Shown here in pieces: positions 15,479 through 27,729 of a DNA stretch of 64,000 nt. The position numbers and the translations under genes are program-made. Origin of the DNA: a virus; IMG/VR virus record IMGVR_UViG_3300045999_009829, one strand, 5' to 3'. Below the pieces are notes generated by a model. The model saw only the letters and a program-made list of their open reading frames with translations. It was not told the origin of the DNA and did no database searches. Position 1 is the first letter of the stretch; every line of letters begins with the position of its first letter.

Positions 15479-15967
15479 TTAGAAGCGATAGTTCAGACCG
15501 AGGGTTACACGGTCCGCAGTCACGTCTCCACTAAAAGCCTCTACACGACGATAGCGAGCGTCGACCTGCCAGTTGGCGCTCAGGTTGTAAGCCACGCCTA
15601 CGCCGGCATTCCACAGCGCCTGAGGATCATTGGCAGCATCGGCAAGTGCATTGAAGCCGTAGCCAGCGCCCACCAGGACATACGGAACCACGGGACCCAG
15701 AGGATACCCAGCAGTCACGTTTGCAAAGACCGCCTGACCGCCACGCTGAGTCTCCGTCTGAGCGGTGAAGTCACCGAGTGCCTCTACAGCAAGGAAGCGG
15801 TTGACGCGATACCCTACGGTTGCAGTTCCGCCCCACTGGGCATCTTCAACCGAGCGGCCCTGAGTCGCTGCGGCGGCGCCGACATAGACGCCAGACTGAG
15901 CCGCGGCTTCAGTAGCAAAGGCGCCGACGGCAAGAGCAGCGACGAGAGCAATACCAGTCTTGTTCAT
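15479..15967 (-). CDS. Outer-membrane beta-barrel protein (8-stranded OmpA/Omp25-like)
   Basis: Signal peptide, amphipathic strands, PYVLVGAG, AGVGVAY, C-terminal Bam signal LNYRF. Confidence 0.85.
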   Translation of the reverse strand: MNKTGIALVAALAVGAFATEAAAQSGVYVGAAAATQGRSVEDAQWGGTATVGYRVNRFLAVEALGDFTAQTETQRGGQAVFANVTAGYPLGPVVPYVLVGAGYGFNALADAANDPQALWNAGVGVAYNLSANWQVDARYRRVEAFSGDVTADRVTLGLNYRF

Positions 15968-15993
15968 GTAGTTTCTCCATATCGAGTTGTGAG

Positions 15994-16281
15994 GTCGGTT
16001 GATTCTGTTTCTAGGCTCAACCGTAAGCCCAAGAGATTACGCCGCTAAGCGAGTCTCAACAAAGCCGTTATCGTTGGCGTTTGTGTTGGTTTGTTGCGTT
16101 GGGTAGCTTCCGCACCATTGCCTACTTCGACCCTTACTGTCATCAGTCGATCCTGTTTCCGCCCCAAAGGAAAACTGTGACGTATCATCACTGACAGAGG
16201 TCACAGCCGTGTTATTGGTGGAGCGGCGGAGTGCTGCCCTCCGGTCCTGTCTGACCTATTTGGTCGCTATCATCAGCAACA
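15994..16281 (-). ncRNA. ssrA: Two-piece circularly permuted tmRNA
   Basis: T-arm plus CCGCTCC-ACCA end at 16216, 50-nt intervening segment, then GGGGCGG 5' end at 16165 (G3.U70); tag frame ANDNGFVETRLAA* at 16037-16078. Confidence 0.92.
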
Positions 16282-16284
16282 AGG

Positions 16285-16292
16285 TATTTATA
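16285..16292 (-). promoter_or_regulatory. Late promoter upstream of the tmRNA
   Basis: TATAAATA. Confidence 0.7.
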
Positions 16293-16300
16293 CACCAGTC

Positions 16301-16612
16301 CTAGTCGAAGTCAACCTTTTCCGACACAAGAGTTCGAGTCTCAGTGACCTTAGTGACTTGAATCGTCTCGAGCTTTGGAGAGTAATAGCTGGGCCCGACC
16401 TTTGATCTTGCTACGCTTATAGCCTTCTCTTTGGTGTCGAACTTGTATGCCAGCGTCTCGTTGGTGATCCACTGAAAGATGTTGTACTGGTAGTCGATGG
16501 AGACCCAAGCTGGTACATTCTCCTCCATCATCACGTACCCGGCTGAGTTCTCAGACTGATTCATCCGGACCGATACCGTGTAGTACTCTGTCTTGATCTC
16601 GTTAACTGTCAT
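16301..16612 (-). CDS. Hypothetical protein
   Basis: 103-aa ORF. Confidence 0.6.
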   Translation of the reverse strand: MTVNEIKTEYYTVSVRMNQSENSAGYVMMEENVPAWVSIDYQYNIFQWITNETLAYKFDTKEKAISVARSKVGPSYYSPKLETIQVTKVTETRTLVSEKVDFD

Positions 16613-19150: not shown

Positions 19151-19245
19151 TGGTAGTCGTGACAGGACTCGAACCTGCAACCGCGCACCAATCTAGTGCA
19201 TACGAGAGGTATAAGCTCTCCGCTCTGCCATTGAGCTACACGACC
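19151..19245 (-). tRNA. tRNA-Ile(TAT) with long variable arm
   Basis: GAGAG-CT-TAT-AC-CTCTC anticodon arm; ~25-nt extra arm; CCA. Confidence 0.85.
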
Positions 19246-23748: not shown

Positions 23749-23805
23749 CCTATTGACTTTATTCTCAGATCGGATATAATCCACAAGCAATCAACGGAGA
23801 CAGAC

Positions 23806-24288
23806 ATGACCAAGCTCATCAAGCAGGCTAACCGCCCCGGGCTCTACGTCTCGGACATCATCAACGAGCGCTACCAGATCCTCGAGTCCGAGGTGTTCAA
23901 GTCCTCGTACTTCGTGTACGACCTGGTCAAGGACGACATGATCCGCTCCAACGACGGCAGCTGCAAGTACTTCGACTCGCTCGACTCGGCAATGGCAGTC
24001 GCTACCGGTCTGGGCATGGTCGCTAAGGCCGTCAAGGTCAAGCAGCCCAAGCCCGAGAAGATCAAGGAGCCCAAGGCGGCTGGCAAGCGCGACGAACTTC
24101 AGGCAGCCGGCCGGCCGAAGCCCAAGAAGGGCTCCGCCAACGGCACGATCATCGAGCTCATCAAGACGACTCAGATGACTGACGCCGAGATCTCTGCCGA
24201 GGTCATGCGGCTCTTCCCCGACTGCAAGACCTGCAAGCCCTACGACGTCAAGTACCGCCGTCGCAAGGTCGAGGCGGGCGCCCTTTGA
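23806..24288 (+). CDS. Basic hypothetical early protein (possible DNA binding)
   Basis: 160 aa, Lys-rich linker; promoter TTGACT 23753 / TATAAT 23775. Confidence 0.7.
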   Translation: MTKLIKQANRPGLYVSDIINERYQILESEVFKSSYFVYDLVKDDMIRSNDGSCKYFDSLDSAMAVATGLGMVAKAVKVKQPKPEKIKEPKAAGKRDELQAAGRPKPKKGSANGTIIELIKTTQMTDAEISAEVMRLFPDCKTCKPYDVKYRRRKVEAGAL

Positions 24289-24743
24289 TCACTCGCTACG
24301 GCGCCCCTAATAGGGCCAGTCCGGAACTGGCAGTCGAGGCTCTCGGGTTCTTTACCGAGAGCCTCATGAGCAAGCGTCTGTGCGCCAACCTCAAGATCAG
24401 GCTGTTCTTCAAGGACGACCTGCTCAAGAAGCACAGGCTTGAAGCTCAGTGCGCCTGGGAGGATGACAACCTCCGGCCCCGCGAGTTTGCCGTCACGGTC
24501 GACAGCGGGCTCACCAGGCATCGCATGCTGCTTTCACTGGCTCACGAGGCGGTGCACATCAAGCAGTACGCGACTGGCGAGCTGAGGTACTTCATCCGCG
24601 GGTGCGCCTGCAGGTGGCGGGGCAAGCCCATCAACGAGGATCGTATCCCCTACACCGAGCTCCCGTGGGAGATTGAGGCCTGGGGCCGCGAGCGTGAACT
24701 GTTTGAGTCATTCTTAGAGACAAGGAAGAGAGGCCGTGCCTAA
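24285..24743 (+). CDS. HExxH zinc metallopeptidase-like protein
   Basis: LAHEAVHIKQY...PWEIEA. Confidence 0.8.
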   Translation: MITRYGAPNRASPELAVEALGFFTESLMSKRLCANLKIRLFFKDDLLKKHRLEAQCAWEDDNLRPREFAVTVDSGLTRHRMLLSLAHEAVHIKQYATGELRYFIRGCACRWRGKPINEDRIPYTELPWEIEAWGRERELFESFLETRKRGRA

Positions 24744-24867
24744 AAGGAATCCTGTGGCCAGAGCTCTGGCCTCGCGACTCTTCGCCAAGAGAGTCGTGAA
24801 ATCCAAAAAGATCTATAGCCGCAAGGCAAAAAGAAAGGGCGCCGATTTGGCGCCCTTTTCGCATTAG
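24736..24867 (+). CDS. ArfA-like basic peptide (43 aa)
   Basis: Not in ORF track: MPKRNPVARALASRLFAKRVVKSKKIYSRKAKRKGADLAPFSH; aligns by eye to E. coli ArfA residues 14-45. Confidence 0.6.
   Translation: MPKRNPVARALASRLFAKRVVKSKKIYSRKAKRKGADLAPFSH
24828..24859. terminator. Bidirectional intrinsic terminator at the strand convergence point
   Basis: AAAAAG-AAAGGGCGCC-GATTT-GGCGCCCTTTT. Confidence 0.8.
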
Positions 24868-25202
24868 TCGAGGTCCTTGTTTCGTGACCCTGGTGTGTCT
24901 ACCATCAGGTAGCGAGCCTTTTCGTTGACTCGATGTCGAGCCTCCAGGATTTCACGGACCTCGAAGAGTCTCTGGACACAGGCCCTGATGGTCCGCCTGG
25001 TGACCTCGTCGTTGGTTCCGTCCTCTAGATCTATGAGAGCGGCATGGAGGTTGTTGTCCACCGACCGGTCGACCAAAATTACCATGCCGTCGTTGTCTTT
25101 TTCCTCAGGCTCTGGGTAAAGCAGATTTGCTATCCGATCGAGCTCAGCCTCTCGGATCACCTTGGGCTCCGGCTGGAACCACTTCATGAACAATTCAATC
25201 AC
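24864..25202 (-). CDS. Hypothetical protein
   Basis: 112-aa ORF. Confidence 0.65.
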   Translation of the reverse strand: MIELFMKWFQPEPKVIREAELDRIANLLYPEPEEKDNDGMVILVDRSVDNNLHAALIDLEDGTNDEVTRRTIRACVQRLFEVREILEARHRVNEKARYLMVDTPGSRNKDLD

Positions 25203-25602
25203 GCGTCGCTTTCTTCTTTCCTATCGTGTACTTTGATTCCAAAGTCCAGTCAGACTTCTCCTTGTAGGCAATGATCTTGACGCTGGACAGCTTTGCCACC
25301 GAGTCGGAGAATGCCGACTTGTTGACAATCTCAAGCAGTCCCCACTCCTCAAGCAGGAAAGCGATAGCGTTGCGCCTGGATCTGTCCTCGTCGGTGAAGT
25401 CAGATGGCTTACCGTCGAGCTGAAACAGCTCCTTGAAGTGCACGATGTAGTACTTTCCGCGCTTGTGAAGGATGTGACAGGACTGAAAGAGCTTCTTTTC
25501 CTTCTTTGAGGCAATCCCGATGCGGGTTAGGGTCTCTTTTATCTTGAGGAAGTCTTCTTCTTTCTTAAGCGAGACCTCTAGAAAGGTGTCTGTGATGGTC
25601 AT
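25195..25602 (-). CDS. regA: Translational repressor RegA
   Basis: DFLKIKETLTRIGIA, QSCHILHKRGKYYIVHFKELF, KYTIG. Confidence 0.97.
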   Translation of the reverse strand: MTITDTFLEVSLKKEEDFLKIKETLTRIGIASKKEKKLFQSCHILHKRGKYYIVHFKELFQLDGKPSDFTDEDRSRRNAIAFLLEEWGLLEIVNKSAFSDSVAKLSSVKIIAYKEKSDWTLESKYTIGKKKATRD

Positions 25603-27079: not shown

Positions 27080-27171
27080 AAGTCACGGGTCCTTTCATGA
27101 TAAATAGCGGGAAGGTGGATGCTTGCAACAACCACCCTCCCTAAGCACAATAACCTTTGGAGGAGGTTACC

Positions 27172-27729
27172 ATGCCATACATTATATATCGGATTACCAA
27201 CAAGGTCAACAGTAAGTCTTACGTAGGTAAGACCACCAAAAGCTTACAAGAGCGCTTCCAAAAACACGTATATAACTGTAAAGCTGGAAGCAACACATAT
27301 CTCTACAAAGCCATGAGAAGGTACGGTATAGAAACCTTCACTGCAGAAGTTCTTGAAGAAACAACATACGATCAGCTTAATGATCAAGAGAGCTTTTGGA
27401 TCTTGAAGTTATCACCTGAATACAACATGACTTCAGGTGGAGATGGCGGCGATACGTCGACTTCACCGAACTTCAAGAAAAGCATGGAACTTTATCATAA
27501 AAACAAGCCCAGAGAAGAGTATGCCACATATGGTATGCTAGGAAAGCCCTGCAAAACAAAAGGGCAACCAAACAGAAAACTGCATTGCCCAGTAATTTGT
27601 GAGGGCAAGATGTATGAATCAGTGGGCTCAGCCCAGAATGCTTACCCGGGCATTAATGTCAGAAAACGTCTAGACAATCCAAAATACCCAGAGTTTTACA
27701 GACTACGAGAAAAAACTTGTAGAAAGTAG
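27172..27729 (+). mobile_element. Free-standing GIY-YIG homing endonuclease (Seg-like)
   Basis: IIYRITN...YVGKT...RFQKH...E...YNMTSGGDG; AT-rich; opposite strand to neighbours. Confidence 0.88.

Follow-up and report, generated by a model that had tools for sequence, protein, structure and literature searches.

A phage gene of the DUF7230 family resembles arfA in sequence and carries a terminator-like hairpin ahead of its own stop codon

In bacteria, ribosome rescue is an essential process. ArfA, which does not fold by itself away from the ribosome, is an alternative rescue factor that depends on RF2 and is regarded as a back-up confined to the beta- and gamma-proteobacteria. Transcription of arfA stops at an internal stem-loop, or RNase III cleaves the transcript there, and ArfA is translated from non-stop mRNA and held at low levels by trans-translation (PMC8012679). 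The brfA gene has a rho-independent terminator ahead of its own stop codon, which serves the same purpose (PMC8012679). Phage ArfA already exists as an annotation, in two genome papers and in JGI labels on a few members of the family described here. Specifically, g10 of Citromicrobium phage vB_CbaS-RXM was annotated as ArfA by homology (PMC8953757), and gp30 of pelagiphage HTVC027P, which has a PF03889 domain and is transcribed both early and late, was annotated as ArfA (PMC12753301). Neither paper reported a function test or mentioned a terminator inside the gene (PMC8953757, PMC12753301). A literature search of incomplete coverage returned no paper on DUF7230, no study of a phage ArfA and no description of a terminator inside such a gene.

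The DNA analyzed here, referred to as the window, was a 64,000-nucleotide part of a 107.8-kb IMG/VR contig from a T4-like phage; the contig was about 63% complete. The minus strand of the window carried the gp44 and gp62 clamp-loader genes and regA (25198 to 25602; Pfam E value of 3e-45 for RegA). The plus strand carried a promoter-like site followed by three tightly packed open reading frames (ORFs), located at 23806 to 24288, 24285 to 24743, and 24736 to 24867. The promoter-like site (TTGACT-16-TATAAT, 23753 to 23780), which headed the three-gene operon, was of the sigma-70 type and matched the consensus at 11 of 12 positions in a consensus scan; it was a consensus match only. The first ORF in the operon encoded a 160-aa protein that could not be placed confidently in any family. 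The second encoded a 152-aa HExxH protein that matched PHROG 10499 and PHROG 16532 (E values of 6e-22 and 4e-21), which have no assigned function, and that showed weak similarity to metalloproteases (phrog_87 metallo-protease, E value of 0.017; Pfam DUF6782, E value of 0.068). The motif in this protein was HEAVH, and its gene appeared to be translationally coupled to the third and smallest gene. The 152-aa protein was considered as a conserved partner of the small gene and rejected, as its relatives in eight IMG/VR contigs were not followed by the small gene. Beside the clamp-loader genes was a plus-strand ORF of 190 aa (27157 to 27729) that began with YIIYRITNKVNSKSYVGKT and, by eye, resembled a GIY-YIG homing endonuclease.

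The small gene consisted of 43 codons and a stop codon, with a GTG at 24736 and a TAG at 24865 to 24867. A Shine-Dalgarno-like purine-rich stretch (AAGGAAGAGAGG, 24722 to 24733) was read upstream of the GTG, and the GTG overlapped the stop codon of the 152-aa ORF (GTGCCTAA). On the opposite strand, a convergent 112-aa ORF (24864 to 25202) was the last gene of the gp44-gp62-regA operon. Because the TAA of this ORF overlapped the TAG of the small gene (as TTAG), there was no intergenic space at the junction, and the sole terminator-like element of the convergent junction was a hairpin within the small ORF. The original prediction described an unannotated 43-codon ORF at this position. The ORF was present as described, and elsewhere it was either unannotated or mis-started; the only database cluster that contained it, P0001, was a 37-aa product that a gene caller had started at V7. 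Conservation across the family showed that the GTG at 24736 was the true start.

Comparisons with sequence families indicated that the ORF at 24736 to 24867 is a real gene. The peptide matched PHROG 20887 (E value of 7e-11 over residues 1 to 31) and PHROG 2701 (E value of 5.5e-5), and it scored 23.7 bits against Pfam DUF7230 (PF23876; E value of 5e-5), slightly under the cut-off of 27. Seven of eight homologues from cultured phages matched DUF7230, with a best E value of 2.9e-13. In the whole 107.8-kb contig, the small gene was the sole match to ArfA or DUF7230. Homologues were identified via tblastn in 83 phage records, in which they were hypothetical or unannotated. The carriers included Sinorhizobium phages phiM9, phiM12, phiM7, phiM19, and phiN3, Rhizobium and Agrobacterium phages, the jumbo phage Atu_ph07, and about 56 records of T4-like Acinetobacter phages. 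Among the GenBank records that lacked an annotation for the gene were those of Rhizobium phage LG08 (L011, 2498 to 2644), Henu6, Atu_ph07, and ORM_20; in LG08, the annotated coding sequence beneath the match was an opposite-strand gene that shared about 90 nt with the small ORF.

When the peptide was used as the query in an exhaustive HMMER search, 12 representatives were obtained, and a profile of these representatives reached 1,125 relatives at an E value of 0.1 or better, which were 35 to 75 aa long and came mostly from viral contigs and metagenomes. The ESM Atlas contained DUF7230-type and unnamed clusters only. In a pattern-seeded scan of one genome per species, covering 185,579 prokaryote species, only three family loci were found, and at least one of the three coincided with an IMG/VR viral region. 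The family consensus was KRNPIAKxLRTPLYRKRVVKSKKVYNRKK, and the N, P, A, Y, and R residues were invariant in the alignments that were made. Searches with the single peptide yielded no match in NCBIfam, no match in the PDB via phmmer, and only its own cluster in a word-indexed protein search. In addition, tblastn searches of the phage collection with family members P0030 and P0109 yielded no matches, and low-complexity masking was the probable cause.

The hairpin in the small gene was located at 24833 to 24859, within codons 33 to 42 as originally described. It had an 11-bp stem and a 5-nt loop (GAAAGGGCGCC-GAUUU-GGCGCCCUUUU) and folded at -19.6 to -20.9 kcal/mol (z score of -3.1). On the plus strand, it was followed by the tail UUUUCGCAU and the UAG stop (24856 to 24867, read from the sequence), with a run of four U nucleotides (UUUU CGCAUUAG), and the stop codon began 6 nt past the last paired base. 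The minus strand had a better U-tract (CUUUUUGCCU, 24824 to 24833) than the plus strand (UUUUCGCAUU); the minus-strand tract was encoded by lysine and arginine codons of the small gene, and the consensus scan called a terminator on the minus strand only. Thus, the caveat attached to the original prediction, that the plus-strand U-run is only 4 nt and that the terminator is stronger for the opposite operon, held. The hairpin is a candidate bidirectional intrinsic terminator of the convergent junction, one that is predicted to be stronger for the minus strand. With only 6 nt between the stem and the stop codon, a fraction of the terminated transcripts may contain the stop codon. Based on the usual geometry of intrinsic termination, however, termination from the G+C-rich part of the stem, which ends at 24855, would occur at about 24862 to 24864, before the stop codon is complete, and the stop codon would likewise be lost if 3' exonucleases trimmed the transcript as far as the hairpin. 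The 3' ends of terminated or trimmed plus-strand transcripts would be expected near 24856 to 24867. Two further strong stem-loops were located in the small ORF, within its 5' two thirds (24755 to 24797): a perfect palindrome of 16 bp (GGCCAGAGCTCTGGCC) and, at 24772 to 24797, a stem of 11 bp; these were not obviously common to the homologues that were folded. The whole 135-nt mRNA of the small gene folded at -57.5 kcal/mol (z score of -5.1), and none of 200 shuffled sequences folded as well.

To learn whether the layout in the window was a chance product of a single convergent junction, we compared 46 distinct family loci, a set made non-redundant from 51 IMG/VR loci, seven cultured phages, and the window. 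In 15 of the 46 loci, the conserved core was separated from the stop codon by a perfect hairpin of -15 kcal/mol or better; each hairpin began 0 to 4 codons past the Y-x-R-K motif and finished ahead of the stop codon. When the last 90 nt of each ORF were considered, 14 family loci had such a hairpin, compared to 1 of 393 distinct control ORFs, all 60 aa or longer and drawn from these loci and from the entire window (Fisher P value of 4e-14). The sole positive control ORF was a shadow frame over a family locus (L071). Many of the hairpin-bearing loci came from T4-like phages that are related to one another and have this convergent synteny in common, so the counts were inflated and not fully independent; counted by seven lineages only, the enrichment had a P value of 2e-8. 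For genuine ArfAs, we used 29 genes that scored above the Pfam cut-off in a sample of 301 Pseudomonadota genomes, and our crude hairpin finder flagged 12 of these 29 arfA loci at -12 kcal/mol or better. The finder allowed no bulges and therefore missed hairpins of the E. coli type.

At least six unrelated types of hairpin occupied this one position: those of the window and the RKGRSIRPFH group, L027, L049, L071, phiM12 and Atu_ph07, and Acinetobacter phage Morttis. Most had U-rich tails on the plus strand, such as GAU-AAUUUUUUG in phiM12 (six U nucleotides), UUUAAUUUUAU in Morttis, UUAUUUUUAU in L027, and UUUUU in L068. An ungapped, scripted count of the stem pairs in the window, L053, and L068 showed that all 11 pairs were kept and that 5 of the 11 were altered on both sides, and the peptide encoded over the stem differed among the three (KGADLAPF, KGRSIRPF, and KGRVNRPF, respectively). 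Judging from this covariation, the conserved element is the RNA stem and not the peptide. Past the hairpin, the reading frame continued without a stop codon for 2 to about 70 codons and showed no conservation, usually running antisense into the convergent gene; phiM9, LG08, and N34 were further examples. A different arrangement was observed in a sub-group of loci (L032, L034, L043, L050, L052, and L054, at about 1590 to 1625), in which a terminator-like hairpin (AGGUUAGUCC...GGAUUAAUCU and then CUUUUUCUUU) contained a UAA stop codon in its 3' arm, an overlap unlike that in the window.

These findings bear on a rival explanation that we consider unlikely, although it deserves the most weight of the alternatives: the gene might be an ArfA relative that is translated from an ordinary, stop-containing mRNA, and the hairpin might be merely the terminator of the gp44-gp62-regA operon, with no tmRNA-coupled control. 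Under this explanation, the hairpin would fall within the small gene's dispensable tail by happenstance, since the genes adjoin each other. The strand preference of the terminator call, the 4-nt plus-strand U-run, and the position of the stop codon 6 nt past the stem are all in keeping with it. So is the finding that most hairpin-bearing loci were likewise convergent junctions, which require a terminator in any case. Moreover, about two thirds of the family loci (31 of 46) had no in-frame hairpin, and many of these were forms of 36 to 43 aa with an ordinary stop codon; thus, hairpin control is not universal in the family. In phiM12, with its U6 tail, and in Morttis, however, the downstream genes were on the same strand, so these hairpins were not explicable as terminators of an opposing operon. 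The near absence of such hairpins from control ORFs of the same compact phage loci also argues against the explanation, as does the finding that none of the 15 hairpin-bearing loci had an in-frame stop codon ahead of the hairpin, despite their unconstrained tails. Finally, the homologous bacterial genes use exactly such a device (PMC8012679). The part of the original prediction that proposed translation from a non-stop mRNA thus found backing in a hairpin-before-stop arrangement that was recurrent and covarying, was nearly absent from controls, and was also present in arfA loci; the backing is comparative, and for the window itself it is tempered by the weaker plus-strand tail.

The second part of the proposal, that the peptide is related to ArfA, was approached via profile searches. 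The peptide scored 12.3 bits against the Pfam ArfA model (PF03889), for which the cut-off is 25.5 (E value of 0.12; residues 10 to 33 on model positions 17 to 43), and in a contig-wide search with this model, the small gene was the sole match (E value of 0.074). The HMM search proposed originally thus gave a sub-threshold result for the single peptide, but the similarity was significant at the level of the family. A profile of the eight cultured-phage homologues did not reach ArfA in the PDB at an E value of 10 or better. In contrast, the best PDB matches to a profile of 11 closer metagenomic relatives were E. coli ArfA chains (5u4i_w, 5mdv_6, 7oj0_6, 5mgp_w, and 5h5u_3), with an E value of 0.022 over 34 positions and one 3-residue gap opposite GKG. 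IQGAP1 was next in that search, with nearly the same E value over a shorter stretch. The Pfam ArfA model touched 5 of the 11 family members (best E value of 0.0012), and among the 1,125 relatives, one had a precomputed PF03889 match and two had been named ArfA by JGI. When 118 family sequences were aligned to the 29 genuine ArfAs with hhalign, the probability was 89.5%, the P value was 2e-6, and the score was 29.9 over 37 columns. One hundred column shuffles, which preserved the lysine- and arginine-rich composition, had a mean score of 8.1 (standard deviation of 2.1, maximum of 14.1), and the reversed alignment scored 9.2. On this evidence, the family is very probably a divergent ArfA lineage that lies outside PF03889 as Pfam defines it.

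The alignment that had been made by eye against a stretch of E. coli ArfA stood up well: the ArfA stretch matched the PDB ArfA chains exactly, and HMMER reproduced the register of the alignment together with its 3-residue gap at GKG. The conserved core of the peptide (NPVARALASRLFAKRVVKSKKIYSRKAK, 24748 to 24831) was aligned to ArfA N14 to K44 in the family alignments, by HMMER to 5u4i_w, and by hhalign. As had also been noted, the peptide lacked GKG (the window reads KSKK-IYSRK) and A18; the residue aligned with A18 was K or R. The GKG of the KGKGS(Y/F)xR motif was missing in all family members and present in all 29 genuine ArfAs. The A18 residue was not universal in ArfA, since short genuine ArfAs of the "KRPNKAKSIVAQPLFRSRQE-PKKGKGSYRRE" type, whose kinship to the family was visible by eye, had S at this position. 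Within the core, L15-F16-A-K-R19-V20-V21 of the window appeared to correspond to ArfA L24-F25-R-Q-R28-V29-E30, and ArfA Q27 to E30 form the strand that pairs with RF2 (PMC8012679).

The correspondence with this strand was relevant to a second alternative, related to the mRNA-channel blocker mentioned in the original prediction, which we consider improbable. The peptide might bind in the empty mRNA channel, as the ArfA tail does, without recruiting a release factor and thereby modulate or inhibit translation in the host, for example by blocking initiation on free 30S or 70S particles or by competing with tmRNA-SmpB or ArfB. The basic KSKK-x-Y-x-RK tail was the best conserved part of the peptide, the GKG insert was missing, and the A18 position was unconserved; in addition, the presumed hosts are not known to have an ArfA, so their RF2 would have had no reason to co-evolve with one. 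Nevertheless, the N-terminal half was as conserved as the tail (N and P were invariant, and A, L, F/Y, and R-x-R-V-V were conserved) and aligned to the ArfA segment that contacts RF2 (Q27 to E30; PMC8012679), which a simple plug would not need. It is very improbable that the ArfA likeness arose by chance or convergence among short lysine- and arginine-rich peptides with an unrelated role, such as nucleic-acid binding, since, short and basic as the proteins are, and despite a single-sequence E value to ArfA of 0.1 and the nearly equal E value of IQGAP1 in the PDB profile search, the hhalign score was about 10 standard deviations above the composition-preserving shuffles, the alignment was collinear over 37 columns with one gap, and the unusual gene layout was common to arfA.

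The phage also carried a tmRNA gene. ARAGORN identified a permuted tmRNA of the alpha-proteobacterial type on the minus strand at 15946 to 16309, with the tag ANDNGFVETRLAA, and the Rfam tmRNA_permuted and alpha_tmRNA models scored 93.4 and 89 bits, respectively. The gene was located among ten phage tRNA genes. ARAGORN also called a 95-nt tRNA-Ile with a TAT anticodon and a long extra arm at 19151 to 19245 on the minus strand (Rfam tRNA, 57.7 bits). Searches of the 107.8-kb contig, which is about 63% complete as noted above, found no SmpB and no RF-1 domain. With a tmRNA and an ArfA-like gene, the phage would carry the two arms of the tmRNA/ArfA hierarchy. Five other phages with members of the family yielded no alpha-type tmRNA; therefore, the pairing with tmRNA is so far specific to this contig. 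The alpha-type tmRNA and the homologues in Rhizobiales phages pointed to an alpha-proteobacterial host. ArfA is not known to operate in alpha-proteobacteria, the likely hosts, and the Pfam ArfA model had no match in the three genomes that contained family relatives (an Alphaproteobacteria metagenome-assembled genome, Faunimonas, and Lacihabitans).

The idea of a phage ribosome-rescue factor that works under the logic of arfA was supported as far as sequence analysis reaches. Our full proposal is that the small gene encodes an ArfA-like rescue factor that recruits RF2 and is translated from non-stop mRNA, and we place about equal weight on its being right and its being wrong. The proposed mechanism is as follows. 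The operon in which the small gene is last appears to be of the early type and would be transcribed early in infection. The frame of the small gene runs through the hairpin at the convergent junction, and most transcripts would end at this putative bidirectional terminator. Transcripts that are ended or trimmed at the hairpin would therefore carry no stop codon, and by analogy with arfA and brfA, ribosomes would run to this mRNA's 3' end and stall. As long as there is spare capacity for trans-translation, provided by the host tmRNA and the phage tmRNA, the nascent peptide would be tagged and degraded. When non-stop complexes outnumber tmRNA, which might be triggered by the mRNA decay of a T4-like infection or by RNA-cleaving defence or toxin systems, the peptide would be released and would accumulate. 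Thus, because the hairpin precedes the gene's own stop codon, as in arfA, the peptide would probably be made only when rescue is overloaded.

The conserved residues suggest how the peptide might then act. The family retains what appears to be the ArfA core, which includes an N-terminal N-x-I/V...L, a hydrophobic L-F/Y, an R-x-R-V-V strand, and a basic tail, and it appears to have lost the GKG insert. The ArfA counterpart of R-x-R-V-V pairs with RF2, and the counterpart of the KSKK-x-Y-x-RK-x-K tail fills the empty mRNA channel. By analogy, the basic tail would enter empty mRNA channels and the N-terminal half would recruit a class-I release factor, which would free non-stop ribosomes for phage protein synthesis.

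The comparative genomics are solid, and the functional role is proposed from them. If the proposed function is correct, phages have captured and miniaturised ArfA together with the control by which it is made only from broken mRNA, and clearing ribosomes of truncated mRNAs matters during infection. The analysis also provides a candidate function for a DUF domain with more than 1,000 mostly viral members, and the minimal 32-residue core would mark the GKG insert and the long N-terminus as dispensable parts of ArfA. A broader reading, which we offer tentatively and with less than even confidence, is that phages of hosts without ArfA carry a stripped-down ArfA with an intact, tmRNA-sensing non-stop switch, that in this phage it is paired with the phage's own tmRNA in a two-tier rescue system, and that DUF7230 is a widespread class of viral rescue factors. 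If the two-tier reading is true, ribosomes would be kept free during the destruction of host mRNA or during RNA-cleaving anti-phage defence. Because members of the family are found in culturable phages (phiM12, phiM9, the Agrobacterium phage Atu_ph07, and the T4-like Acinetobacter phages), the idea is directly testable.

Among the known systems, RXM g10 and HTVC027P gp30 resemble the small gene in being ArfA-annotated genes in phages of alpha-proteobacteria, a likeness drawn from their published annotations. DUF7230 (PF23876) and PHROG 20887 and 2701 represent the family to which the small ORF actually belongs; these entries carry no function, and what the present analysis contributes is their link to ArfA and the layout in which a hairpin precedes the stop codon. 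BrfA of Bacillus subtilis, which is also RF2-dependent, is likened to the small gene by its regulatory logic only: a terminator before the stop codon, a non-stop mRNA, and repression by trans-translation (PMC8012679). ArfA itself is the closest. In contrast to enterobacterial ArfA, the small peptide has neither GKG nor the long N-terminal lead (the Y-x-H-x-K-G region), and the carriers of the family are phages, many of them phages of alpha-proteobacteria. The two nevertheless share a tiny size and a collinear core, N-x-I...L...(P)L-F-R-x-R-V-x-K-x-KK...Y-x-RK-x-K, and in both, the conserved core is followed by a hairpin that precedes the stop codon, with an unconserved tail past the hairpin.
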